From the IMG/VR virus record IMGVR_UViG_3300025129_000005: 64,000 bases of DNA; one strand, 5' to 3'. Every line of letters begins with the position of its first letter. Within the stretch, counting starts at the first letter, position 1. The stretch comes from a virus (Duplodnaviria; Caudoviricetes). Shown here piece by piece: positions 7,565 through 53,921 of this stretch. The position numbers and the translations under genes were made by a program. The notes below the pieces were generated by a model, which did not search any database, was not told where the DNA came from, and worked only from the letters and a program-made list of their open reading frames with translations.

Positions 7565-8263
7565 ATGAGGCTTGAGCAGTATATAACCGAAAGCATTAAC
7601 GATAAGGGTATTTTCAAGGCCATATTCATGGCAGGTTCGCCGGGATCAGGAAAGTCGTTTGTAAGAAAAAAATTGTCAGGTGGGTATGAACCCAGAGTCG
7701 TAAATACCGATAAATTCACAGAATTCTTCGGGGGGTGGAATGGTTTTAGTGAGAAGATAAAACTTCTTAATAATAATCAATTATTGTTATATTTAAATTC
7801 TATGTTACCTCTTTGGATTGACGGAACTTCTGGTAATAGAAACAATCTCATGACAAGAGAAGGTCTTTTGTCAGGGATGGGATACGATACTGGTATGATA
7901 TGGGTCAATACTGACCTTGACGAAGCAGTTAAGAGGGCACAGGAGCGCGAAGCCCATGGCGGTAGACATGTTGATATCCCTTGGTTAAAAGAAACTTACG
8001 AAAAAATTCAGAAGATGAAATCATTCTATATGACTCGTTTTCAATGGTTCTTAGAGGTTGACAATAATACTGGACAATTAACTGATGAAGTGGTACAAAA
8101 TCTATACTCAAAAACACTTCCATTTTTTGGGGGACCAGTGAAAAACCCACATGGGCAAGAAATTATAAATACTTTAAAAGAGATGGGTGGAAAATACCTT
8201 ACGGATATGGAAGAATATGATATGAAGTTTATTCAAAATAGAACAAAAGCGTGGTTTACGTGA
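7565..8263 (+). CDS. P-loop kinase (zeta-toxin/AAA_33-like) with leader
   Basis: 'MAGSPGSGKS', 'VNTD', 'IDGT', 'AVKRAQER'; MRLEQYITE leader. Confidence 0.75.
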   Translation: MRLEQYITESINDKGIFKAIFMAGSPGSGKSFVRKKLSGGYEPRVVNTDKFTEFFGGWNGFSEKIKLLNNNQLLLYLNSMLPLWIDGTSGNRNNLMTREGLLSGMGYDTGMIWVNTDLDEAVKRAQEREAHGGRHVDIPWLKETYEKIQKMKSFYMTRFQWFLEVDNNTGQLTDEVVQNLYSKTLPFFGGPVKNPHGQEIINTLKEMGGKYLTDMEEYDMKFIQNRTKAWFT

Positions 8264-9468: not shown

Positions 9469-10626
9469 TTATGCTAGCTTTTCCCAAGCTATATTTTGTG
9501 GACTTTTTAGTTCTTGTAAACGAACCGTGGCATTTGCACCAAATACTCTATTTGCGTATCTCAACCACAAATCCATAGTTGAGGTTTCCTTAGATCCTTT
9601 TCTTCCGATCTTCACTTTCAATACAAAACCAGTAGCTTTTTTATCAGTAATATTATATGAAATATCTTTAATTTCTAAGGGGTTGTTTGTCAGTTCTGAT
9701 CTTGAAGGAACATAATATAGACTCTTCTGTGACTGATAAAAATATGGTTTAACGGAAAAGTTTAGCAATTTTTCTATAACATGTGTGTTTGTTAATGCAT
9801 TAGATATTAGAGGCAAAACACCATTAGCAGCCGCTTCAAATACCTGCTTTGATAATGTGCTGAATTCTTGGGTATTTGCTGTTAAATGTGCCCCAAACAC
9901 AGAATGTAATTCAATATTATGCCCAACTTCGGCTAGCAATCCACTTTCTGTGTAATCTTTACTTTTGTTTTTAGCAACAACAGTATATGAATTATCCGTA
10001 TTATATCTGATATTATAGTGTGGTGACCTTTTATCGGGAACATAAATTTCTCCCTTCATACTCTTGGCTTTTGCTAGAGTTGACTTCATAACCACAGTCT
10101 TCCATTTATCATATAATCCCGTACTAACTTTATCACAATAAAATTTTATACTATCAACTCCTTTGGGGTTTTCTATACCAAGATGTGAGGGTGACAAATT
10201 AGATAATGTGATACCTTGCTTCCCTTTAATCGAAATGCCGAACGCAGAAGAACCAACAAATTCAACGTCAGCTGGATTACTATCATCACCCTTGGCATTT
10301 GTACCGCCCACCCAAAATAATTTTGGTATTGATCCGACTTTACCTGTGACTAATTTTTTTCTGGACTTTGATATTTCATAATATGTATTGAATACGTTAG
10401 CGTTATAGTTTATAGGAAGAAATTTAAGTATTTCTGAATAAACGTGATCAGGATTTTCCAATTTATTGGAATCCCACCATAAACTAGGGTCAAACTCAAG
10501 ACTGGTAGGATCAAATCCTTTTAAATTCTGAGTCTTTGTAGTATATGCTAGAAGACATGCTAATTCGGTATTGTACCGTTCGGCACCAGACTTCCCACCC
10601 TCAAGTAAATATTGTTCGAATTTCAT
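9469..10626 (-). CDS. PD-(D/E)xK-like endonuclease with leader
   Basis: 'NPADVEF...FGISIK' catalytic-like motif; MKFEQYLLE leader; overlaps methylase stop. Confidence 0.55.
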   Translation of the reverse strand: MKFEQYLLEGGKSGAERYNTELACLLAYTTKTQNLKGFDPTSLEFDPSLWWDSNKLENPDHVYSEILKFLPINYNANVFNTYYEISKSRKKLVTGKVGSIPKLFWVGGTNAKGDDSNPADVEFVGSSAFGISIKGKQGITLSNLSPSHLGIENPKGVDSIKFYCDKVSTGLYDKWKTVVMKSTLAKAKSMKGEIYVPDKRSPHYNIRYNTDNSYTVVAKNKSKDYTESGLLAEVGHNIELHSVFGAHLTANTQEFSTLSKQVFEAAANGVLPLISNALTNTHVIEKLLNFSVKPYFYQSQKSLYYVPSRSELTNNPLEIKDISYNITDKKATGFVLKVKIGRKGSKETSTMDLWLRYANRVFGANATVRLQELKSPQNIAWEKLA

Positions 10627-11447
10627 AAGTTATCTTTATTATCCTCGTATAATTGTATAAATTCCCCTATTGTAAACGTGGGGCTTATTGCAGTTGTATC
10701 ATACGAATATTTATACAATAAATGATTTAGTTTTTTTAACTTTGAAACAATAATATCACTGTCAACTTTTAAGAATATAAATTGTGTTATTGGGGTTGCA
10801 TAGCTAGATTCAATTAACTCACCTACACGATTGCTGTATCCTGTTCTACGAATAGCATAGTTAGTGTTGTTTATATCAAATTTATTCCCCTGTGGTATGA
10901 CTTGGAAATCAGATGAATGTTTTGGTAATATTATTTTCTTTCTAGGAAAAAAATCTTTTTTCCAGACCTGAATACAACATCTAGCGTTTGTACCTGATAC
11001 AAATGATCCAATATCAACATTCAATTGCTGATCCAAGTGAAATCTTGTGTCAAGCTGGTTAATTATATATGCTTTTTTAAACGATCTTGGTAGTATAAAT
11101 GCTATAGTATCACTATACTTTGCTGCATGATTAAAGAATTCGATAGCCAATTGCGCTCTGAATCCAAATGGCGGATTGCCGATGGTTAGAATTTTCTGAC
11201 CATCTTTGGGGCGCATATCAAAATCAAAGAAGTCCATTTTTTTTATAACATCATCATTTTCGGGTGCGATATCTAAGGCAATTAGCTTTGATGCATCTAT
11301 AAAATTACATATAGAACCATCACCAGCAGAGGGTTCTATTATGTGGTCATAATCATCCTGATTTATAAGGCTCACCAATTTCTTCGAAACATCAACATTT
11401 GTGTAATGTTTGTCTAGTTTTTCTTTTGTCTGTTTTTGTGTCATCAT
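10623..11447 (-). CDS. N6-adenine DNA methyltransferase
   Basis: Motif I 'IEPSAGDG', motif IV 'GNPPFG'. Confidence 0.88.
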   Translation of the reverse strand: MMTQKQTKEKLDKHYTNVDVSKKLVSLINQDDYDHIIEPSAGDGSICNFIDASKLIALDIAPENDDVIKKMDFFDFDMRPKDGQKILTIGNPPFGFRAQLAIEFFNHAAKYSDTIAFILPRSFKKAYIINQLDTRFHLDQQLNVDIGSFVSGTNARCCIQVWKKDFFPRKKIILPKHSSDFQVIPQGNKFDINNTNYAIRRTGYSNRVGELIESSYATPITQFIFLKVDSDIIVSKLKKLNHLLYKYSYDTTAISPTFTIGEFIQLYEDNKDNL

Positions 11448-11476: not shown

Positions 11477-12280
11477 TCAATCTTTACTAATATTACTTGT
11501 AATCCAATCGTCAGCAATATCATCATCAATGGTGATTTCTGATGCTTTCTTGAAACTGCCATCCGTGAGAGGAATATTTTCATCAGGACTAATTTGTATC
11601 TCAGTTTCACCGAAAAAAAGTTTAATCACCTTTTCACCCTGATCATCCATACATTTACGCCATCTTTCTCTTTTTGTAGCAGAATCTTTACCACTTAAGA
11701 ACTTTATTTCATGATCTTTAAGGGTCTCATCTTCCTCTAAAACCGTCTTTAATGTTTCACCCTCATCCGACACCTTACCTACAAGAATCAACACATTACC
11801 GTCCGAATTCTTAATGATGTCCTTGATTAGACCCTGACGATATGAATTATTAAAACATATATCCTTTATTTCGTTATAATTAGCTAGACCTTGGCGATGT
11901 GAATTATCAGAGCATATATCCTTTTTTCCTGTATGACTACTTCTCGGTGGTACTTTATATTCAATATGAACCATTTTAATGAATGCTTCTGCAACGTAAC
12001 CCATCTTGGCTAATCTTGAGGCACCATATTCACGTAATACCGGACCGAGATAGGATTGAACTTGTAGACAATCCAACTGTTGAGAGGGCATTGTACCAGT
12101 AAAACCAAATCTCCATCTTGCATTAGGACACATTTGTAACAATTCATTTAATACGATTGCTTTGCAGCCATGACAATTGGATACAACTATATCATTGGCG
12201 ATATAATTGTTATTATTTTTTACATGGAGATTGTATACCTTATCAGGTTTTTCAATTTCAGTTCTTTTTACGAGTCGCAT
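11477..12280 (-). CDS. uvsW: Split-intein C-part (35 aa) fused to UvsW middle fragment (part 2 of 3)
   Basis: 'KVYNLHVKNNNNYIANDIVVSN|CHG' intein end; 'GFTGT' motif III. Confidence 0.88.
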   Translation of the reverse strand: MRLVKRTEIEKPDKVYNLHVKNNNNYIANDIVVSNCHGCKAIVLNELLQMCPNARWRFGFTGTMPSQQLDCLQVQSYLGPVLREYGASRLAKMGYVAEAFIKMVHIEYKVPPRSSHTGKKDICSDNSHRQGLANYNEIKDICFNNSYRQGLIKDIIKNSDGNVLILVGKVSDEGETLKTVLEEDETLKDHEIKFLSGKDSATKRERWRKCMDDQGEKVIKLFFGETEIQISPDENIPLTDGSFKKASEITIDDDIADDWITSNISKD

Positions 12281-13190
12281 TTAATTTCCTTGTGGTTTCT
12301 TCATCAAACACACCATCAGCGAGACGATGAATGTTATCTGTTATATATTCTTCTGTTAAAATGTCATAAGTGTATCCGTTAAGATAACACCATTCAGACA
12401 AACACTCTTCTTTGGTACGTTCTACCTTCCCATTAACTCTACACATTGGTTTTAGTTCTACAATGTGTTTTGTGTTATGATTAACAAAATCCACGATATA
12501 TATCTTATCTTTGCCTTCAATATTATACGGTATTCTCAAGGTTTCGTATTCATAATCTTGATTGAAGTGGTGAAAGAATGCTTCCCATGACGATCTATAT
12601 TTTTTATTGTTATAATATACTTGCCAATGTGTATGTGAATTATGAATATTTGGTGTAAAATCTCCATTCATAATCAACTTTTTAACAGAAACAGATTGTT
12701 TATATCTTTGCTCTTTTGTAGGTATAACACCAAATGAAGGGTTGCCTTCACCCATCCTATCACAAGAAAGTTTTAACAAACGGTCATCATCTTCTTTTGT
12801 TAGTCCTTTATTCCAAGGAGATAATCCTGTTTGTATGTCTTTATTCCAAGGGTTACCAGTGTTTAAGTTGTTACGTATCTTATCACCATGTTTGTCCTGA
12901 CAACCAAGACCGCCCTTTTTTGCAATATCATGCTTCATTTGTCTATAATATTTTTCCCTTATATTAGAGTCTATGTTATATAATAAATCAAACATGGTTA
13001 CATATGGCGATTTTAATATTCTTCTGTTAAGAGTAATTACATCGTTTCTTCTTTCAATAACAAGACCATTAGACAATACAGATTTCGTTGGGCTGTAGTT
13101 CTTTACTCTGAGTAATTGATTATTTTTTTCTAATACATCGTTTAGTTTGTTTCTATGGTTGTTATGTCTTGATATTTCGTTGTTTCTCAT
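12258..13190 (-). mobile_element. Free-standing homing-type endonuclease between the split-intein halves
   Basis: NUMOD-like 'PWNK' repeats; C-terminal 'YRSSWE...YIVDF...IVELKP' PD-(D/E)xK/TnsA-like domain. Confidence 0.75.
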
Positions 13191-13223
13191 AATACATACC
13201 CTCTTGTGATGTGAACTTATAGG

Positions 13224-13231
13224 TATTTATA
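13224..13231 (-). promoter_or_regulatory. Late promoter for the endonuclease
   Basis: TATAAATA on the minus strand, 34 nt upstream of ATG 13190. Confidence 0.5.
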
Positions 13232-13236
13232 TTTTT

Positions 13237-14190
13237 TTATTCAAACCCTATAACATCATGTTCACAAGTTAACTCATCTGCCCTGATATAACCTTTATCG
13301 GTAAGTATTTTATGATTACCTGTAACTCTTAATATTTCACCACCATCAAATTCTAACTCATACATTCTCTCGTTAGATGATATAGTCATGTTTTCGTATA
13401 CATCTTCAATTATATCTTGTTCATATTCATTAGTTTCGGTGTTATACGAAATAACGATGTCCCCTATAACCAAATCTTTTATCTTTTTATAGCCATTGTC
13501 GGTTTTTATGAGAGTATCGCCATCAACACACTCATCCACAATAACCATATCCATATGTTCCATATAGTGTTTTACATTGTTTAGTGACTGCCAAGTACTG
13601 ATAATTAAAGGGTTGTTCCATTCCTTCCACTTATCACCAACACGCCCAACAGTAGACATATCCACTCCATATTCTTTCATATCACCATAGAACTGAGTGA
13701 CCAGACCAACAGAAGGCACAATAATTATACCGTTTTTTGTTAAATTCTTTTCTTGTAGTGCTTTAACAACATATGATATCATTAAACTTTTACCACTGGC
13801 CGTTGCAGACCTGATGATGCCTTTACCTGTCTTAAGACACGCAGAGATACAATCATCTTGATAGTTATATGGTTGAAATTTTAAGTTTTTGTGATATTCG
13901 GGTTTGATTCCGACAAATAAAGACTTTACTTCGGATGAAAGTGTATAAGGTAATTCTGACCATTCTTTCTTATGATACTTAATTAACTCTAATAGTAGAC
14001 CATAAGGTATAGTCCTCTTCACGGAGTCCATAAGACCAACTTTACCATCCCAGCTTCCGCACTTATATTGTAACATAAACTTATAACCGTCAACGTAATG
14101 ACGGAAATATTCTTTTACTTCGGTGAGATATGTCCAATTTTCTGTATCGATTCTGATATGAAGAGGATCATGTAATTCTAAATTAACCAC
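13237..14190 (-). CDS. uvsW: UvsW N-terminal fragment fused to split-intein N-part (97 aa, 13530-13240) (part 1 of 3)
   Basis: 'ATASGKS' Walker A; 'VIVDE|CVDGDT' intein start; 'VTGNH' block B. Confidence 0.9.
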   Translation of the reverse strand: MVNLELHDPLHIRIDTENWTYLTEVKEYFRHYVDGYKFMLQYKCGSWDGKVGLMDSVKRTIPYGLLLELIKYHKKEWSELPYTLSSEVKSLFVGIKPEYHKNLKFQPYNYQDDCISACLKTGKGIIRSATASGKSLMISYVVKALQEKNLTKNGIIIVPSVGLVTQFYGDMKEYGVDMSTVGRVGDKWKEWNNPLIISTWQSLNNVKHYMEHMDMVIVDECVDGDTLIKTDNGYKKIKDLVIGDIVISYNTETNEYEQDIIEDVYENMTISSNERMYELEFDGGEILRVTGNHKILTDKGYIRADELTCEHDVIGFE

Positions 14191-44387: not shown

Positions 44388-45914
44388 TTAGTTTTCTTCT
44401 CTGTCCTCTTTCTCTACCTTCTTCTTTTTTTTATTCTTGATATAATCAGGTCTATTGGTAACCATATAAACTCTAGCAGGATTAACCACTGATCCAGATC
44501 TTATCATAAAATCTTTATTGATTAGAACAGGTGTTGTTTTATGACTACGATCATTTAAATTAAACGGTACTTTTGAATAATTAACACCTTCAAATGTGAC
44601 ATTTAATTCTACAACTACCCTCTTCTCATCCAATTTTTCTTCCGAATCAGAATTATTTTTCATTCTAATTTCGTTTAATTTCGTCCCTGACATCTTTTTA
44701 CCCATAGTAGACCATGTTACCTTAGACCCTTCGACATTAACGTCTTGTGCGTCAAGTGAGGAGCTACCAGCGGCATTTCCGGTGTCAAACCGAGCATGTA
44801 ATTGACCGATACCCTCGATCTCTATGGATTCAATCACACCAATCTGCTGTGGTGGTCTATTCCAATTTATGGTATTCTTTGCATATTGCATCACCATATC
44901 AACAATATCTAATTTGGTCAGTTCCTCTATACCATCTGTACCGGGGGAAGAGTTAACCTCAAGAATATATGGGTTTCCTTCAACATCAAACATGATATCC
45001 ACGCCGCACCATTTACACTGAACTGATTTTGCAGCTTTAACTGCCAATTCTCGTATTTCCTTGGTTGGTCTATATTTACCAGTCTTTCCGCCTAGATGAA
45101 CGTTTGAACGGAAATCGTTATCAACGACCTTTCGCTTCATTGCCGCAATAACCTTGTCACCCAAAACATGAAGTCGAACATCATGGTCAGACTTAACGTA
45201 TCTCTGCAACATCATCTCAACTTCATCACCAACAGCCCATATAGCTTGAAGTGTGGACTTTAATGCTTTGTACTCATTGACAATGAATACACCTTTCCCC
45301 TGAGTACCACTTAATGTCTTAACAACAACAGGAAATCCACCGCCAACTTTTTTGTGTGCCAACTCAAGCATTTCCTCTGTAGGAACTAGCGCAGTATCAG
45401 GAACAGGAAGACCAGCTTCAACTAGCTTTAATGTTGTTAAATACTTGTCTTCACATGTTTGAATAGAAGACTTTTCGTTCAAGAAACAAAAACGATATCT
45501 CTCAAGACGTGACATAAGGTTTTGTGAATATCGATGAAACATAACACCGCGTCTGGCAATGACAAAAGTTTTATCACGATCAATCTCATGACCTTCTTTA
45601 TCACCAACGTTATAGATCTTGATAGTTCCTTCGTCGCCTTTCTCAAGATAAGCAGTGTCAGCGAATGCTGTGTAAAAAGGAACATCATTTTTGCTACACC
45701 ATTTCTCTATTTTGATGATAGTTGGGTTCTTTTTTGACATCTTTCTATTCTTGGAATCGGTAGATGATGTTAGTATAAGGATATTAAACCCTTCAACCTC
45801 ATCAATATCAACCATTTCCTCTTCGGGATCAGAGTCAATACCATCTGCTTCATGGATAACAGAATTTAACTTTAACTTTTCAAATTCTTCTTTAAGTGAC
45901 ATTTGATACCCCAT
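44388..45914 (-). CDS. RimK-family ATP-grasp ligase fused to a retropepsin-like protease domain
   Basis: 'VVKTLSGTQGKGV', 'DNDFRSNVHLGG', 'CGVD', 'LEVNSSPG'; C-terminal 'ARFDTG...LNDRS..LI'. Confidence 0.85.
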   Translation of the reverse strand: MGYQMSLKEEFEKLKLNSVIHEADGIDSDPEEEMVDIDEVEGFNILILTSSTDSKNRKMSKKNPTIIKIEKWCSKNDVPFYTAFADTAYLEKGDEGTIKIYNVGDKEGHEIDRDKTFVIARRGVMFHRYSQNLMSRLERYRFCFLNEKSSIQTCEDKYLTTLKLVEAGLPVPDTALVPTEEMLELAHKKVGGGFPVVVKTLSGTQGKGVFIVNEYKALKSTLQAIWAVGDEVEMMLQRYVKSDHDVRLHVLGDKVIAAMKRKVVDNDFRSNVHLGGKTGKYRPTKEIRELAVKAAKSVQCKWCGVDIMFDVEGNPYILEVNSSPGTDGIEELTKLDIVDMVMQYAKNTINWNRPPQQIGVIESIEIEGIGQLHARFDTGNAAGSSSLDAQDVNVEGSKVTWSTMGKKMSGTKLNEIRMKNNSDSEEKLDEKRVVVELNVTFEGVNYSKVPFNLNDRSHKTTPVLINKDFMIRSGSVVNPARVYMVTNRPDYIKNKKKKKVEKEDREEN

Positions 45915-46144
45915 TATGAGTTACTATTTCTAATATCTTTGTCTACCTCAGCGCCCAATTTACGTAAATCGCTGATAATTCTATGAACTTTCTTTCTGAT
46001 ATTAAAATTAATTATTTCCATTTCCGATATAGTTTCTAATTGAAACTGGATATCCTCAAACATCTTATCAACATCGTTTGCGATATCTTTAGGAGTGTTA
46101 CGACCATTTAATATTTCTTTAAGATATTCTCTTATATTACTCAT
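45914..46144 (-). CDS. Small protein with leader-like N-terminus
   Basis: MSNIREYLKE. Confidence 0.55.
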   Translation of the reverse strand: MSNIREYLKEILNGRNTPKDIANDVDKMFEDIQFQLETISEMEIINFNIRKKVHRIISDLRKLGAEVDKDIRNSNS

Positions 46145-46194
46145 TCATTAGACCCTACCTATTAATTATATTTTTCTGTTACATTTATCAGGTC

Positions 46195-47622
46195 TTACTG
46201 TAGCTTTTTATCCTTCATCTCTTTAGCCACTTCATACATAATAGGTTTGAGTAATTCATCTGGATATCCCTTACCCCAAAAATTCAACCCCTGTACATTG
46301 GTGATATCTTTATGACCGCCTGATTGTGTTGTAATAATATCCCATAGATTTACGGTAATTTTATCTAACATGCTCTTCTGCTTGAATGACAACGAATCAA
46401 ACTTTGACTTTGATATGCTTTTGATGAATGAAGTCCAACCACCCTCACTGTCAAGTTCGACACCGTTGACTTGTTTTTGATCAAACATGGCAACAAAGTC
46501 TTCCCATTTGAAACCCATTGCATCCAAATCACCCTTAATATCACTCTCCATGATACGCTTGATATCACCAAGGCTAACCTTTTTTTTCTGCATCTTTGAT
46601 TTAAATTTGGACATAATATTATTCATAACCAAATCACCTAAATGATAAGGGTTTTTCCCTGATTTAAATGGATTTTTGGAAACCTGAACGAGACCCATAG
46701 CCCACCCAATACAAAGATAATCAGCATCAGGATAAAGTTTGAATGGTGTATATCTATCATATACATTACTACCACCCATAAAGCCACCACCGTATTGAAC
46801 AATTGTGTTTCCCCATAAAGTTGATTGCCCCATTTTCAGCTTAGAGGGGTTTGTCTCTGATTTAACCATGCCACCCTTCTGCTGTGATACATAATTTTCG
46901 GTACCCTTTTTAATGACATTTGATGGTCTGAATCCATCTTTTTTTGCTAAATCAACGATAACATTGTACATACTAATAAGAGAAGGTTTTGATTTCATAA
47001 CAACGTCTTGTAGAAAGTTCTTTTTTCCTTTATTGGCCAGAAGCAATTTATTAACAACCATACCCATAGCAAAGTGATTTTTTTCAACATCTATTGTATC
47101 ATCATATCCAAACGCTCCATTCATAACTTGATCTGGATTAATACCGTGTTTCGCATAATCAGCACTATCAACCATTTTGATGACTTCAAGGTCTTTAGTT
47201 GGAAATATTTCACTAGGAGATATTTTTGCTGAAATTGCTGCTACGTTAGCAGGATCATGAGCAAAATCAGTTGAAGTGGTTGTATTAACACCCGTCTGAC
47301 CATCATGGTGATCTGTATGAATATCAAGAAAAGGTTTGCCATGGGCAAAATCAACCATCCATGTTAACGTTCCCTTTTGTGGCTTTGCGGCTTTAAACTC
47401 GTTCCCTCCATAATTAATGGGTATGACTTTTGTTGTTTTAATACCATATCGCTCAAGATAGGATTTCATACCAAGGGCTGAGGTTACACCATCTAAGTCC
47501 ATATGAAAATAACCAGTTGCAGTCTTATATTTCTTGGCCAAATCTTTGATATTACGAAGACCTGACTCGTTTACCTTACTATGTACCGCTTCTGCTTGCT
47601 CTAAATGTTCAAATATATTCAT
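46195..47622 (-). CDS. DHH-like phosphoesterase
   Basis: 'HMDLDG', 'VDF', 'TDHH', 'SGGH'. Confidence 0.65.
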   Translation of the reverse strand: MNIFEHLEQAEAVHSKVNESGLRNIKDLAKKYKTATGYFHMDLDGVTSALGMKSYLERYGIKTTKVIPINYGGNEFKAAKPQKGTLTWMVDFAHGKPFLDIHTDHHDGQTGVNTTTSTDFAHDPANVAAISAKISPSEIFPTKDLEVIKMVDSADYAKHGINPDQVMNGAFGYDDTIDVEKNHFAMGMVVNKLLLANKGKKNFLQDVVMKSKPSLISMYNVIVDLAKKDGFRPSNVIKKGTENYVSQQKGGMVKSETNPSKLKMGQSTLWGNTIVQYGGGFMGGSNVYDRYTPFKLYPDADYLCIGWAMGLVQVSKNPFKSGKNPYHLGDLVMNNIMSKFKSKMQKKKVSLGDIKRIMESDIKGDLDAMGFKWEDFVAMFDQKQVNGVELDSEGGWTSFIKSISKSKFDSLSFKQKSMLDKITVNLWDIITTQSGGHKDITNVQGLNFWGKGYPDELLKPIMYEVAKEMKDKKLQ

Positions 47623-47701: not shown

Positions 47702-48361
47702 TCACAATAACTTGGTCAATTCATCCTCAAAAAACGGGTCTATCAGGTAGTATTCTTTGCATCTCCACATAGATTCAAAAGTCCTCTGACTTAACCACGT
47801 TTTCATACCACTATCTCTGAAACCTTCAACCCTTTTCTTCCATTTTTCAAGTTTCTTACGATCATAGTCATCATCCCCATTAGTACCAGCAATATCATTA
47901 ATAAGTTCACCATTTTTATCAAAGTTTATGACACGATGTGGTGTGTTTATAAATAAATCATCAACGTCAGGGTTATATATGTATTTGTATTGACCTATTG
48001 GCATGAATATCAATCCGTAACCATAAGTATAAGTCTCGCTATAATTATGTGTTGCAAATACACCAGTATTACGAGGCATCCAACCAAATTTCTTTTTAAA
48101 TATTTTATTCAAATAATCCTGTATGTCCTGTCTCATGTTCATAGGTTTTCTATTCATACGAGGTTTTTTCTTGAATATGGCAAATTTATCTTTATCATTC
48201 TTACCCAGAGACCTAACGCCACGATAGAAATACCAATCAGTACCAAATTCACGAAGATATGGTGCGCATTTTCTTTTAAGTTCATCAGCAATCTCTTCGA
48301 CAGAATTAAATTCAACCCTTTCAGCCGAGGATTCTTCGGTTATATATCGAACTAATCTCAT
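47702..48361 (-). CDS. ADP-ribosyltransferase-like paralog 1 with leader
   Basis: MRLVRYITE; 'FYRG', 'GVFAT', 'YGYG..FMPIG', 'ESMWRC'. Confidence 0.55.
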   Translation of the reverse strand: MRLVRYITEESSAERVEFNSVEEIADELKRKCAPYLREFGTDWYFYRGVRSLGKNDKDKFAIFKKKPRMNRKPMNMRQDIQDYLNKIFKKKFGWMPRNTGVFATHNYSETYTYGYGLIFMPIGQYKYIYNPDVDDLFINTPHRVINFDKNGELINDIAGTNGDDDYDRKKLEKWKKRVEGFRDSGMKTWLSQRTFESMWRCKEYYLIDPFFEDELTKLL

Positions 48362-49008
48362 TAATACCTCTCAATGCCCAGATATTTTGATAATTCATCT
48401 ATGATAACCATGTCAACATAATAGTAACCATTAGGGCAATTAAATATAACCTCTCGTGCTTGTTTATCACGCCAAGCTTTTTTTAGATTACCGCCGAAAT
48501 AACCATCAACCAAAAAATCAACATCCTTCTGTTCCAAAAAATACAAAGGATCTTTATAACGTAATCTAAGTTCAGATTCTATTTGGCTTTGTGCTATAAA
48601 AAAATCATAATGATCTTCTGAATACACAAACTTATACCCATTCACAGGAAACATTAAATATAAGTTTTTTCCGTACCCCCTAGACATACCGGGTCTTGTT
48701 GCGGTAAACACTCCCTCACTTCTGACTTTCCAACCAAATTTTTTCATGAATGATTTGTCTGCCATATCGTGGACACGTTTTCTTGTATCAACAGGTCTTC
48801 GATTCAGCCTTGGTTTTTGTTTAGAGATAAAAACGCCCCTTTCCAATTGTCGGTTAGTCCCTCTATAAAGAAACCCCCCAGTCTCTCTTATAAACAGAGA
48901 ACAATCCTTTTGTAATATTGTTAAAACATTATCAAGATCTGGATCCTCTCCACGTATTCTGGTACCTTGCTCCGTGATAAGGTCTGTTATGTACTGTTCA
49001 AATTTCAC
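48361..49008 (-). CDS. ADP-ribosyltransferase-like paralog 2 with leader
   Basis: MKFEQYITD; 'LYRG', 'RSEGVFT', 'YG..YLMFP', 'REVIF'. Confidence 0.55.
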   Translation of the reverse strand: MKFEQYITDLITEQGTRIRGEDPDLDNVLTILQKDCSLFIRETGGFLYRGTNRQLERGVFISKQKPRLNRRPVDTRKRVHDMADKSFMKKFGWKVRSEGVFTATRPGMSRGYGKNLYLMFPVNGYKFVYSEDHYDFFIAQSQIESELRLRYKDPLYFLEQKDVDFLVDGYFGGNLKKAWRDKQAREVIFNCPNGYYYVDMVIIDELSKYLGIERY

Positions 49009-49038
49009 TAAAAATACCCTCTACAATTCAACTTAATT

Positions 49039-49782
49039 TTATTGGGATGCGGCGATTTTCTCTCGTATTTTTCTGACCGCAGGTAATTCCGATTTTGCTG
49101 TATGTTTAATTCCAGTATAAAATATGGCTAACATAAGGTTGTATATTGTTCTACCCAACCATGGAACAGAAATAATAGATCCCGTGGCAAACAAACCAAT
49201 CAACATCAGCCCGTCAGGAGATCCAAAAATGTCCTCAAGACTATAAGCACCCTTCAATGCTAATGCTATATTTGTGAAATCGAAATCATAATCCAAATTA
49301 CCTATAAATGTCATCTGAGTCCACATAAAAAATAACAGCCCTGCAACAACCGATCCAGTAACTTTCTTAAGTAGAGGATACTTTTCGGCAAACTCATCAA
49401 ACTTAATCGTCCCCTGTCGTATCTTCTGATATATTTTGGTTTTGTATAATTCACTGAATATCTCAAACAATCCTTGTCTAATAAACATCGTCAGAGTATT
49501 GACAGACTTAAAAATAACTTTTAATGAAAACCCAAATGATTTAAGCAACTTGAACATATTCTTTTCACTAAAAGCATTGATTATCTCTACGGCACTTAGA
49601 CCAAAATCAAATATCATCTGATCGAGAATTTCGCCCGCCTCTTTAAACTTCCTGACAATAAACCCGACCGCCTTGTCCTTTAAATCAACAAGACCCTCGT
49701 CTACACCAAAGTAATAGTTTATTCCTTGGATGTATTGTTCATATGTAACATCAGATTCATTTATATACTGCTCAAATCTCAT
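49039..49782 (-). CDS. Membrane protein with leader
   Basis: MRFEQYINE; hydrophobic C-terminal helices. Confidence 0.6.
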   Translation of the reverse strand: MRFEQYINESDVTYEQYIQGINYYFGVDEGLVDLKDKAVGFIVRKFKEAGEILDQMIFDFGLSAVEIINAFSEKNMFKLLKSFGFSLKVIFKSVNTLTMFIRQGLFEIFSELYKTKIYQKIRQGTIKFDEFAEKYPLLKKVTGSVVAGLLFFMWTQMTFIGNLDYDFDFTNIALALKGAYSLEDIFGSPDGLMLIGLFATGSIISVPWLGRTIYNLMLAIFYTGIKHTAKSELPAVRKIREKIAASQ

Positions 49783-50518
49783 ATAAATATTCTCCCTGTG
49801 AAGAACTAACCATCACCGTCTTTGTTGACCACCACACTTCCTTGTTAAACGGTAATACATCACCAACCTTTCGCAAAACAAACCCATTCTTTGCCGGATC
49901 AAGGTAATCAGTACACGCCTGTAACATGTTACCATTGTAAAACTCCTTAAAAAAACGGGACACTGGCTTATTTTTATGCGGCGAGCTTAATACCTCATCC
50001 ATTTTTTCAAATTGTTTAAGTAAAGTTCCCCATTTATCAGAAGGTGATTCCTTTATATACGTTTCGAATGCAAACTTAAGATCTTCATTGAAAGTATCAA
50101 GCGAAGGACTAAAGGAATCCCATAAATCATCCTCTGGACATACACCAATATCAGTACCATCAATGGGTAGCATTATATAAGTTTTTCCTATGTGACGATC
50201 GACCCTGCTGGGGCTTGAAGCACCAATTACTGACTTACTTCTCTTTGGATATTTGTTCCATAACGACATATTATCCATCATAACAGTATAATAATTATAG
50301 GTATATCGAGAATCTCTTTTGAATCTTGATGGTTCAACAACACCATAGTCATTTGTGTAATTTTCGGAACTTCTATATAAACCACGACCCTCTGTATACA
50401 TTCTCAGTGAATTACTGCATCTCTTTTTAATGAATTCAAACGCATCTTCACGACTGATCGGCTTGGTTCGACCACTAGTTCGTTTAGAATCCTCTATTAA
50501 AAAATTTTCTAATCTCAT
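49772..50518 (-). CDS. ADP-ribosyltransferase-like paralog 3 with leader
   Basis: MRLENFLIE; 'LYRS', 'RSKSVIG', 'YIMLP', 'KEVWW'. Confidence 0.5.
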   Translation of the reverse strand: MRLENFLIEDSKRTSGRTKPISREDAFEFIKKRCSNSLRMYTEGRGLYRSSENYTNDYGVVEPSRFKRDSRYTYNYYTVMMDNMSLWNKYPKRSKSVIGASSPSRVDRHIGKTYIMLPIDGTDIGVCPEDDLWDSFSPSLDTFNEDLKFAFETYIKESPSDKWGTLLKQFEKMDEVLSSPHKNKPVSRFFKEFYNGNMLQACTDYLDPAKNGFVLRKVGDVLPFNKEVWWSTKTVMVSSSQGEYLYEI

Positions 50519-50533
50519 AGTAGCTCCTAAATA

Positions 50534-51370
50534 TCAATCAATCTGCGGTAAATTGTGACGATGCAAGAAAAAACAAGCCTCTCCTTGTTCATACAACAAT
50601 CTCCCTATATCATCAAAGGTAATATAACACTCACCATTCATCCCCCATGACTTACCCCATGAATTATGTATAGTGAATCTTTGTTTGGATACATTAACAG
50701 AATTAACTAAAACACAATGACCACCAGCTATTTCACCTTTTGCATAGATATATCCATTAGAATCAGGATAGAACATTCCGGTATACCAATTAATCCCAAT
50801 TACTGCTGGACCGTTATATCCAACACCCAATATCAAGTCCTCCAATCCGAATGCCCAACGATACTCCTCTATCCACCCGAGTTTCTTCGCAACCTTGGCT
50901 CCAGCCAAAACACTCGTCCCTTCATAAAACGGGAATCCTCCGGGATATGACCCACCATTCCATTCATCGATTTTCTGTGCTTCCCAATATATTTTTTCTT
51001 TGGCATATCGTTCCGTGATACCTCTGACTTCTGCTGGTCTGGCGATCAATTCATGGGCAATACCAAAACCAACACAGGCTCCATCAGGTCCCTGATCCAG
51101 TTGAGCATCGCATCTCCATGTATAGGAACGTCTCTTCTTGGTACTGACTGTCGACCTTATACCATATCCACGACTACGTTCATCGAACTGGACTATACGA
51201 TCAAGTCTAGCGTCACTCGTAATAACATGACCCTTCAATAATATACTTCCGTCAACTCGCATCTCATTTACAATTGAATTGAGTTTTTCGTCTTCAAGCT
51301 TCTTGATGTGTTTCATTTCTTTAACTTTTTCCAGATAATCATTATGTCTTGATTGTACAGTGCTACCCAT
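50534..51370 (-). CDS. Papain-like (C1) cysteine peptidase
   Basis: 'DQGPDGACVGF', 'GGHCV', 'NSWGKSWG'. Confidence 0.88.
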   Translation of the reverse strand: MGSTVQSRHNDYLEKVKEMKHIKKLEDEKLNSIVNEMRVDGSILLKGHVITSDARLDRIVQFDERSRGYGIRSTVSTKKRRSYTWRCDAQLDQGPDGACVGFGIAHELIARPAEVRGITERYAKEKIYWEAQKIDEWNGGSYPGGFPFYEGTSVLAGAKVAKKLGWIEEYRWAFGLEDLILGVGYNGPAVIGINWYTGMFYPDSNGYIYAKGEIAGGHCVLVNSVNVSKQRFTIHNSWGKSWGMNGECYITFDDIGRLLYEQGEACFFLHRHNLPQID

Positions 51371-51388
51371 ATCAAATCTCCTTTGTTT

Positions 51389-52222
51389 TTATTGAATATA
51401 AGCTTCCATTTTATCTTTAAAACTTGGATCATTCCATAGACTCAATTCAACTAAAATACAGTAACCATCAGTCCATACCTCTTTTCTGCGGGGAATGGCA
51501 TTACCGACCTTTTTTAATTGAAAATTTTTATCAGGTTCCATGACTGTTTTATAAAATCCAAAAAGGTCTTTGCTATCGAACCACATATCAATCAAATTAT
51601 CCGTCGGACTGTAACTTGATAAAATTTTTGACAAATCTTTTCTTATGTCACGGTCAGTATTCATTCGCCCTATTATATCATTTATCGTTGAAAGCTTTGA
51701 CCAAGATCCGTCATAGGGTCTGGCTATAGTAGGATAATTATAACTCTTTTCTTCTATATAACCCATATATGACCAAATAGTATCATCAACAAACGCATTT
51801 ATTTGACCTAAATCTTCGCCGGTACTTTTATAACTTACAGAAAATATATCATCGTAATTAACAACACCCACTGTAGACCCATCTTCTGGAAGAACAACAT
51901 AAAGTCTGTTCCCATAAGACATAGCTTTACCCATATCAGTAGAACATATAACACTTTCACTTCTTTTGGGATATCCCGAGAAAGTACCTCCATTGTCCAT
52001 GAAAAGGGTATAATAATTAAAGGTGTTTCTGGATTCTCTTTTTCTGTTCTGCTTAGGATCAATCTCCATAACAGTACCTTTACCAAGTACACCACGAAAG
52101 ATAAGATTATTTTTAAGTGATCTATTATAAGCCTTCATGCATCTTTTGGATATAATCTCAAGACCCTTATCAAGGTTAATACTTTTGCTCCTGCCTTCAT
52201 TTAAGTAATGTTCTAATTTCAT
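51389..52222 (-). CDS. ADP-ribosyltransferase-like paralog 4 with leader
   Basis: MKLEHYLNE; 'IFRG', 'RSESVICST', 'YG..YVVLP', 'KEVW'. Confidence 0.55.
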   Translation of the reverse strand: MKLEHYLNEGRSKSINLDKGLEIISKRCMKAYNRSLKNNLIFRGVLGKGTVMEIDPKQNRKRESRNTFNYYTLFMDNGGTFSGYPKRSESVICSTDMGKAMSYGNRLYVVLPEDGSTVGVVNYDDIFSVSYKSTGEDLGQINAFVDDTIWSYMGYIEEKSYNYPTIARPYDGSWSKLSTINDIIGRMNTDRDIRKDLSKILSSYSPTDNLIDMWFDSKDLFGFYKTVMEPDKNFQLKKVGNAIPRRKEVWTDGYCILVELSLWNDPSFKDKMEAYIQ

Positions 52223-52592
52223 AATGATTTCTTAAGCCTTTGTAAGAATTTCGTATCAAATGCATTATTTTCGAATGATACGATATAATATTCATAACAT
52301 TTGAACATGGCCTCATGGGATGACTCTGCTTTCCACCCATGATATTTAAAAAACAACTCATCCATGAGATCATGTAAATGTTTCGGAGTGTCTTTAGGAA
52401 CCATTTTTCGTCTCGACCTGACTTTTAGGATATAATCACTCATCTCTTTTTGTGTGCCACGATATACGGGGTTATATGGTTGTACTCCAAACTCTTTAAT
52501 GAATGGTTGACAATCCCTTTTGAGGACATCAATGATATCATCCATTTCCAGTTCGCGCTTTGTTGGTTCTTCTTCATTTTATACAGTTTCAT
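52219..52592 (-). pseudogene. Decayed ART-like paralog 5: frameshifted leader plus internal deletion
   Basis: ATG 52592 (MKLYK) is out of frame with NEEEPTKRELEMDD...; the central RS-GVF-T-YG block is missing. Confidence 0.6.
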
Positions 52593-53278
52593 TACGACCT
52601 CGATATATAAAGAGTGCCATCTTTTATTTTTCCGGTTAAAAAATATTCCTTAATATATTTATGATAATCCACGTCGATCAAATAATATCCGCTACACTTC
52701 CATACGACTTCTATGACATAGTGGTGACCGTTGACGTTCTGATATTTTTTCAGCCCTTTATCTGTATATTTTGGTAAAAATTCCTCAATATACGATTTGC
52801 CTTTATTATACGCAAATTTATCAGACGTGTCGCCTTCTTTGTATTTTTTTATCCATTCATATGTGATAGAAAAATCAGCTATATCAATCACATCTTTGTT
52901 GTAGAGATAACTGTATGCTCCGACTGGAAAGAATAGAAACGATTTATTCCCATATTTAAGCGAATTACGATAGTCTGTTGATGTGTATACCCCCTCTGAA
53001 CGCCATTTCCACCCCCATTTTTTCTTACTCCATTCATCGAGAAAATAATGCATCAACAACTCGGAATCCTTCGGTCTTCTGTCCTGTCTTGCTGTACGAT
53101 ACATAACTGCATGTGTATTAATATTTGTCCCCCGGAAAAAACGGCTACCGGATACATTAAATTCCTTTAACCACGGAGCGCAGTCTTTCTTGATCATTTC
53201 ACAAACATCAATTAGGTCTGATACATTTTTAATATCTCTACTCTGATACCCCTCGGTCAAATAATGTTCAAGTCTCAT
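52592..53278 (-). CDS. ADP-ribosyltransferase-like paralog 6 with leader
   Basis: MRLEHYLTE; 'FFRG', 'RSEGVYTST', 'YG...FFP', 'IEVVWKC'. Confidence 0.55.
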   Translation of the reverse strand: MRLEHYLTEGYQSRDIKNVSDLIDVCEMIKKDCAPWLKEFNVSGSRFFRGTNINTHAVMYRTARQDRRPKDSELLMHYFLDEWSKKKWGWKWRSEGVYTSTDYRNSLKYGNKSFLFFPVGAYSYLYNKDVIDIADFSITYEWIKKYKEGDTSDKFAYNKGKSYIEEFLPKYTDKGLKKYQNVNGHHYVIEVVWKCSGYYLIDVDYHKYIKEYFLTGKIKDGTLYISRS

Positions 53279-53921
53279 GATAAAATTTCTCCTCCAACCG
53301 TTTAAAGCCAAAATCAATCAATTTCTTAAAAAAATACGCGAACATAGGTAATAATACTATATTTATAAAAGGGTTTTTGGCATCAATTTTGAACAATGTC
53401 ATAACATCTTCGATTTCTTTGGCAATATGCCCCTTCTCTGACAGATATGCTTGTTTTTCCTTTTCTAATTCATCAATGCGATTTTGTAACTTATCGACAA
53501 TAGGTTCTACAGGAACCGGTGTGACTGATGAAGGTTCAGGACATCCATCCTCACGAACAACCATATTAAGTGGAGTATTTGGGCATTTATCATAGGTATC
53601 CGGGACATTATCACTATCACTATCACTATCTATGGGATATGGTGATGCGGCAATTGGTGGCGAAGCCGGTAATCGTGACGGTTCAACTATCATAGCTAAT
53701 GATTCATCACGATACGCACGTTGTACTTGTCTCAACTCCATTTGCTTGGTCTCGATATCTTCAACTGCGGTATCAATTAAATTGTTATTCAGCTTGATCT
53801 GTGCATAAGTAGCTTGCTCTACTTGGACATAATTGATATAGTTGGTGTATCCCCATATACCTAAAATAATGAATCCAACTATTAAGTAAATAAAAAATCT
53901 CGTCCACCTGAATTTTTCCAT
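53268..53921 (-). CDS. Membrane protein with a thrombospondin-type-3/OmpA-linker-like Ca-binding repeat
   Basis: AGGAG SD before ATG 53921; 'DSDSDNVPDTYDKCPNTP...DGCP'; N- and C-terminal TM segments. Confidence 0.65.
   Translation of the reverse strand: MEKFRWTRFFIYLIVGFIILGIWGYTNYINYVQVEQATYAQIKLNNNLIDTAVEDIETKQMELRQVQRAYRDESLAMIVEPSRLPASPPIAASPYPIDSDSDSDNVPDTYDKCPNTPLNMVVREDGCPEPSSVTPVPVEPIVDKLQNRIDELEKEKQAYLSEKGHIAKEIEDVMTLFKIDAKNPFINIVLLPMFAYFFKKLIDFGFKRLEEKFYHET

Follow-up and report, generated by a model that had tools for sequence, protein, structure and literature searches.

A phage gene cluster encoding putatively head-packaged proteins with a predicted ADP-ribosyltransferase fold

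Introduction

Bacteriophage T4 encodes the mono-ADP-ribosyltransferases (ARTs) Alt, ModA, and ModB, all of which depend on nicotinamide adenine dinucleotide (NAD+); Alt is packaged in the phage head at approximately 40 copies, trimmed by the protease gp21, and injected. Packaging of ARTs in the head is already known as a phage strategy, from T4 Alt and from the ART domains of polyvalent proteins. In their surveys, Iyer, Aravind, and colleagues report that phage ARTs are often head-packaged, that they occur in >40% of jumbo phages, and that Bacillus phage G encodes at least 10 of them (PMC9503650; PMC7824862). Here we analyze a compact string of eight genes at positions 47702-53278, on the minus strand, of a 64,000-nucleotide stretch of DNA from an uncultured giant T4-like phage of the Caudoviricetes (IMG/VR record IMGVR_UViG_3300025129_000005); this whole stretch is hereafter termed the window. 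Most of these genes encode divergent members of one protein family, which on balance are probably head-packaged enzymes of ART fold that are delivered with the DNA in a manner analogous to T4 Alt, and that represent another, as yet unannotated, superfamily branch.

The system resembles T4 Alt in belonging to a T4-type phage, in the predicted ART-superfamily fold of its products, in their N-terminal propeptide with a gp21-type site, in the presence of homologues in virions, and in a presumed role in modifying host molecules right after injection (PMC9026906; PMC9503650). It differs in that the proteins are far smaller, that 5-11 diverged copies are found per genome instead of a single packaged enzyme, and that activity is predicted only. 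We found no sign in the main texts of the two ART surveys that the family had been recognized as ART-like, and the main text of the later survey (PMC9503650) names an Agrobacterium phage zero times.

Another point of comparison is the diverse set of T4 internal proteins, one of which inhibits restriction without being an enzyme (PMC3012670). Inspection of the sequences of IPII and IPIII shows the N-terminus MKTYQEFIAE in both; those ten residues are enough to bring foreign proteins into the T4 head, and gp21 cuts after L/I-x-E (PMC9026906; PMC3012670). Like these, the proteins described here carry a short leader that ends in aromatic-aliphatic-x-Glu and is common to otherwise unrelated proteins, and the cargo is diverse. 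In contrast to T4, the leader has one residue fewer and another sequence, and the cargo has a predicted enzyme fold and belongs to a very large family.

Results and Discussion

The cluster encodes five intact paralogs and a remnant

A sequence-only reading of the window had listed six paralogous open reading frames (ORFs) in this region, and all six are present there on the minus strand. Their kinship is well above chance. PHROG assignments place four of the ORFs in phrog_11975/15932 (1e-8 to 1e-18) and two in phrog_12810 (1.6e-30 and 6.2e-37), defining a subtype A (47702, 48361, 52592, and 52219, each named by its lower coordinate) and a subtype B (49772 and 51389); the profiles of the two subtypes match across their N-terminal ~120 residues (hhalign probability 97.9%, E 4.8e-13), and motifs are common to both. 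The paralogy is therefore real. The motifs listed in the earlier reading, i.e., C...[YF]R[GS], R-x-[PS]-x-[DN], RS-x-[GS]-V, YG...P, and a late Glu with hydrophobic residues after it, are visible in our alignment. The C-terminal halves of the subtypes are of unequal length, and pairwise identity among the copies is 16-33% in an alignment of the cluster proteins. The mature proteins are predicted to be ~24-31 kDa and mildly basic (pI 8.2-9.1), and PHROGs labels all six family ORFs as being of 'unknown function.'

The count of six holds for relatedness but not for intact genes, since the 108-aa ORF at 52219 is a broken remnant of a subtype A gene, which leaves five intact copies. The remnant has no leader; at 52592, a degenerate MKLYKM start is found in a different frame. 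It keeps the YRG motif, R-x-P-x-D, and the C-terminal Glu strand, and runs from 'HGWKAESS' directly to that strand; an internal deletion has removed the central strands.

Structure predictions point to an ART fold

AlphaFold2 (AF2) models were built from deep alignments, one per subtype. The subtype B model (51389-52222) reached a mean predicted local distance difference test score (pLDDT) of 94.2 and a predicted template modeling score (pTM) of 0.89, and the subtype A model (48361-49008) a pLDDT of 89.2 and a pTM of 0.84; in both models disorder is confined to the N-terminal leader. An exhaustive structural search with these two independent models returned almost exclusively ART structures, and the split beta-sheet core of the models superposes on solved ART domains. 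On the strength of these models, the ART-superfamily fold suggested by the sequence-only reading is well supported as a prediction. Closest to the models are BC2332, Arr, diphtheria toxin, DarT, and Tpt1 rather than structures of C3/VIP2/Alt types; differences in Z score between ART clades are small, mostly <2, and a ranking among clades is thus unreliable.

The likeness to BC2332 (PDB 2AUA, SCOP d.166.1.6) lies in a minimal ART fold and an unassigned function; identity in structural alignments is 6-9%, and BC2332 is, unlike the cluster proteins, bacterial and leaderless. BC2332-like proteins presumably correspond to the Pfam family DUF2441. The DUF2441 model PF10386 matched 0 of 78 subtype A members at E<=1, and it had no match in five related phage records. 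SCOP places the BC2332-like family d.166.1.6 among the codes for ADP-ribosylation (PMC3000352).

By sequence methods, the family is undetectable as ART. No Pfam model describes it, Pfam searches of the six cluster proteins gave sub-threshold noise only, and two of our profiles (A2 and A3) retrieved only helical low-complexity designs from PDB sequences. Foldseek searches of AFDB clusters, ESM Atlas, and BFVD found only uncharacterized relatives; UniProt lists relatives as 'uncharacterized,' and BFVD likewise annotates the homologues from Agrobacterium phage Atu_ph07.

Arginine and glutamate residues are invariant across the family

Conservation was assessed in 78 subtype A sequences, with a mean column identity of ~15%, and 150 subtype B sequences. 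In subtype A, R49, R96, and E186 are invariant, and conservation reaches 90% or more at each of C36, R70, P72, G92, W93, P121, D135, C191, and Y195. In subtype B, R43, R62, P85, and R87 are invariant and E248 (98%), S64 (99%), and C93 (96%) nearly so. The first of the arginines (R49/R43, 100% in both subtypes) belongs to a [YFW]-R-G motif on a predicted strand, with the Gly present in 73% and 95% of sequences, respectively; E186 (100%) and E248 start a late predicted strand and are followed by hydrophobic residues. The Arg and Glu that the sequence-only reading had singled out are thus invariant or near-invariant in the family at large. ARTs keep an NAD-contacting His or Arg and a catalytic Glu at these same aromatic-x-Gly and late-strand positions. 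Retention of the Arg and Glu in more than 200 sequences at ~15% mean column identity would be difficult to account for if they served neither catalysis nor ligand binding.

Among described ARTs, the H-Y-E enzymes (Arr, DarT, Tpt1/KptA, and the diphtheria-toxin group) share with the family a single Glu at the catalytic position and, for subtype A, the G-V-[FY] motif on the second core strand, where H-Y-E enzymes keep their Tyr. They differ in having His rather than Arg on the first strand, and in lacking two extra invariant arginines and a long variable helical insert before the Glu strand. To our knowledge, classical protein ARTs offer no nameable counterpart to these two further arginines (R70/R96 in A, R62/R87 in B). 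The insert, which separates the fourth core strand from the Glu strand, spans ~55 residues in subtype A and ~125 in subtype B; this helical segment varies more among the paralogs than any other part. In C3-like enzymes, the target-recognition (ARTT) loop occupies the same position, and by analogy the insert may determine target choice.

A capsid-targeting-like leader suggests packaging in the head

All five intact copies open with M-[RK]-[LF]-x-x-[YF]-[IL]-x-E, the copy at 48361 having YITD followed by LITE. This leader opens nine ORFs in the window, four of which (7173, 7565, 10626, and 49782) are unrelated to the family. The site [ILV]-x-E occurs inside the first 16 residues of 146 of the 150 subtype B homologues and 71 of the 78 subtype A homologues. 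The leader also makes this cargo predictable from sequence alone.

Virion data are available for Agrobacterium phage Atu_ph07, the sole cultured relative with proteomics, which encodes a gp21-type protease (PF03420, 2.4e-22) and eleven consecutive homologues (AUZ94865-AUZ94875). These correspond to gp53-gp63, since AUZ94813 is CDS (coding sequence) 1 and gene lengths agree with the tabulated masses. The electrospray ionization tandem mass spectrometry table of Atu_ph07 virions lists all of gp53-gp63, with 3-31 unique peptides and 12-46% coverage (PMC6102473 Table S5). The family thereby makes up 11 of the 131 virion-associated proteins of this phage. By analogy, the resemblance of the leader to the T4 capsid-targeting sequence and the eleven homologues in virions support the earlier proposal that the cluster proteins would be packaged.

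Also present in this virion table, with one peptide each, are an ADP-ribose pyrophosphatase (gp238) and a NUDIX hydrolase (gp303) (PMC6102473 Table S5), which may be further ADP-ribose-related cargo.

Packaged proteins need not be enzymes, and the products could instead be non-catalytic internal head proteins with an ART-derived fold that act by binding, either as defense inhibitors like T4 IPI* or in DNA-associated packing. The non-enzymatic restriction inhibitor among the similarly tagged T4 internal proteins (PMC3012670) offers a precedent, and the mildly basic character of the proteins, the extreme divergence of the paralogs, and their variable middle segment would all suit such a role. 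Against this stand the Arg and Glu, invariant at canonical ART positions across such divergent sequences, and we regard this explanation as unlikely.

Possible activities and substrates

Several results weigh against the interpretation of the cluster proteins as packaged ART enzymes. Foldseek found no significant match for either model in the PDB or among Swiss-Prot models, and Pfam searches at E<=1 of all 78 A and 150 B members matched no ART family. Neither subtype has a [QE]-x-E motif, as the position -2 to the Glu is variable; the residues ending at the invariant Glu in the copies are A-R-E, V-I-E, T-F-E, N-K-E, and R-K-E. In the Ser-Thr-Ser columns of subtype A, no Ser or Thr reaches 60%, and the G-V-[FY] motif (G99 85%, F101 87%) stands in place of the Ser/Thr motif; the corresponding columns of subtype B hold S90 (93%), C93, and T95 (76%). 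Profile comparisons of our A4 and A3 alignments with a ModA/ModB profile were not significant (hhalign probability 1.1% and 2.3%), although short local matches paired the YRG of the family with that of ModB and the Glu with the second Glu of ModB. As for packaging, the virion data come from a distant relative whose proteins are 27-34% identical to those of the window, and virions purified with polyethylene glycol can carry contaminants.

The sequence-only reading had invoked the R-S-E clade, which comprises cholera toxin, C3, VIP2, and T4 Alt, ModA, and ModB. Assignment to that clade is not supported: the family differs from Alt and the Mod proteins in having no detectable sequence or profile similarity to ModA/ModB, no Pfam ART match, no ExE, and, in subtype A, no conserved Ser/Thr motif.

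The non-significant Foldseek matches and the lack of a sequence-profile link to any known ART family could also mean that the fold resemblance is coincidental, with the proteins, packaged or not, adopting an unrelated alpha/beta fold. This seems very improbable, given that the family has its invariant residues at the same places as ARTs; clusters of Arr-ms, PARP, and DUF2441 also came up in a language-model feature search, though as weak leads (scores 0.77-0.85).

A different question is what packaged ART-fold enzymes would modify. Their substrate might not be protein at all, with the enzymes acting on nucleic acids, nucleotides, or small molecules, or hydrolyzing NAD+ or NAD-derived immune signals. 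ART-fold enzymes with such activities include DarT, which acts on DNA, Tpt1, which acts on RNA 2'-phosphate, and Arr, which acts on rifamycin. The structures nearest to our models are of these kinds rather than C3/VIP2/Alt types, and the missing [QE]-x-E motif points the same way. The three arginines (R49/R70/R96 in A, with R70 at the lower conservation given above; R43/R62/R87 in B) would suit a phosphate-rich substrate, and Tpt1 uses an Arg-His-Arg-Arg set. Furthermore, gp53 of Atu_ph07 (778 aa; 31 unique peptides in virions) carries a Zeta_toxin/AAA_33 domain, resembling Zeta toxin and polynucleotide kinase P-loop kinases, fused behind a subtype B domain; in the window, this kinase domain is encoded as a separate leader-tagged protein at 7565-8263. 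However, the small Z differences make the structural ranking unreliable, fusions may merely be concatenated cargo modules (an A+B fusion, gp54, also exists), and no nucleic-acid-binding domain was detected. We consider a non-protein substrate rather unlikely.

We also entertain, as a doubtful extension, that the family forms a new catalytic class on the ART fold, with three invariant arginines and one Glu, unlike both R-S-E and H-Y-E enzymes. Such enzymes might act on phosphate-bearing targets, i.e., host or defense nucleic acids, nucleotides, or NAD-derived immune signals, and giant T4-like phages would carry a panel of 5-11 of them in every head as a ready-made counter-defense and takeover kit, with the target of each paralog set by its insert.

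The window copies are old lineages kept together

A megablast search of the region against cultured phages gave no match. At the protein level, relatives occur in giant T4-like phages, namely Agrobacterium phage Atu_ph07, Ralstonia phage RsoM2USA, Salicola phage SCTP-2, and an uncultured 484-kb phage, each of which has multiple family copies; the array of Atu_ph07 includes the A+B fusion mentioned above. The family is very large: in a 1.84-billion-protein library represented at 50% identity, one subtype B member matches 2,404 clusters at E<=1e-3, of which 989 reach E<=1e-10. When IMG/VR was scanned with the profile of subtype A, 44 loci were found, many with 2-7 adjacent copies.

In a FastTree phylogeny of 99 family members, all of subtype B falls into a single, well-supported clade. 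The five window copies lie dispersed over the tree, with five label changes, the same number as for shuffled labels, and each resembles proteins of other phages (36-40% identity) more than its own neighbors (16-33%). The sequence-only reading had interpreted the cluster as a tandem expansion; recent tandem expansion is rejected on these grounds, and the cluster consists of old paralog lineages that have been kept together, one copy being in decay. Local expansions do occur in some other phages (Atu_ph07, L034, and L011). Because terminal branches measure ~1 to 1.7 substitutions per site, synonymous sites are saturated and a test of the ratio of nonsynonymous to synonymous substitution rates would carry no meaning.

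Proposed mechanism and significance

A T4-type late-promoter-like motif, TATAAATA, lies at 53360..53367 on the minus strand, ~80 nt ahead of the cluster's first gene. Its position suggests a candidate promoter, with which late expression of the cluster as a single unit would fit; the motif is not significantly enriched across the window (16 found vs. 10.2 expected), and a scan for sigma-70 promoters and terminators likewise showed no enrichment.

If the proteins are Alt-like packaged enzymes, as we favor, the cluster genes would probably be read as one late transcription unit. The leader of ~9 residues, of the T4 capsid-targeting type, would direct each protein into the prohead core, and a gp21-type prohead protease would remove it after [ILV]-x-Glu. 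The mature proteins would then be carried in the head and enter the host along with the DNA. There, the Arg of the first core strand and the Glu of the fifth would bind NAD+ and transfer ADP-ribose to host molecules, and the variable helical segment before the Glu strand would set the target of each paralog. Should the proteins prove enzymatically active, a diversified panel of ART-fold enzymes would dominate what giant T4-like phages inject as protein, and the targets of these enzymes could reveal which host functions or defenses are to be disabled in the first seconds of infection.

Gene content of the cluster and of other parts of the window

The features of the cluster, together with a leader-tagged kinase gene elsewhere in the window, are listed in Table 1. 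Stop and start codons overlap at several junctions of the cluster. Two of its eight genes, interspersed between the paralogs, are unrelated to the family. The leader-tagged gene at 49039-49782 was considered as a paralog and rejected, as it has no family match and aligns poorly with the cluster copies; the gene at 50534-51370, a papain-like peptidase by its PHROG and sub-threshold Pfam matches, was also rejected. This peptidase lacks the standard leader and has an I-V-N-E site near residue 35.

Table 1. Positions of the gene cluster members and of a leader-tagged kinase gene in the window; ART fold as predicted from models.
Feature	Position	Strand	Details
Subtype A ART-fold paralog	47702..48361	-	219 aa; leader MRLVRYITE; phrog_11975 1.8e-18
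Subtype A ART-fold paralog	48361..49008	-	215 aa; GTG start preceded by GAGGG; leader (V/M)KFEQYITD-LITE; modeled as mf69589315013
Unrelated leader-tagged protein	49039..49782	-	247 aa; leader MRFEQYINE; three hydrophobic segments; no Pfam or PHROG match
Subtype B ART-fold paralog	49772..50518	-	248 aa; leader MRLENFLIE; phrog_12810 1.6e-30; hmmsearch with A3 profile 8e-71
Papain-like peptidase, non-paralog	50534..51370	-	phrog_16701 5.9e-58; Pfam Peptidase_C1 0.0024, below cut-off
Subtype B ART-fold paralog	51389..52222	-	277 aa; leader MKLEHYLNE; phrog_12810 6.2e-37; modeled as m95e0fae07b84
Broken subtype A remnant	52219..52592	-	108-aa ORF 52219-52545; phrog_11975 3.3e-8
Subtype A ART-fold paralog	52592..53278	-	228 aa from ATG at 53278; leader MRLEHYLTE; phrog_11975 4e-17; in alignments A2 and A4
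Leader-tagged P-loop kinase, Zeta_toxin/AAA_33	7565..8263	+	phrog_12810 positions 259-475 at 2.5e-27; Pfam AAA_33, Zeta_toxin

A P-loop kinase was observed both in the window (Table 1) and at L001:8410-9759. Another leader-tagged protein (385 aa, MKFEQYLLE), with no family match, is encoded in the region 9469-11447 (minus strand), where it adjoins a methyltransferase-like gene (phrog_5172; phrog_799 'DNA methyltransferase' at 1.8e-10).

Downstream of the cluster, the region 44388-47622 (minus strand) encodes a 508-aa RimK-type ATP-grasp ligase fused to a Zn_protease-like C-terminal domain, as well as a 475-aa protein with a weak DHH match at its N-terminus (E 5e-4, below cut-off). Elsewhere in the window, at 11477-14190 (minus strand), a UvsW-type helicase gene is apparently split by an intein. 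The ORF at 13237-14190 contains UvsW_N, ResIII, and DEAD domains followed by Hint/Intein_splicing matches at its end; 12258-13190 is endonuclease-like (phrog_15427), with a weak TnsA-like match at the N-terminus; and 11477-12280 opens with an Intein_splicing match, after which the helicase resumes.

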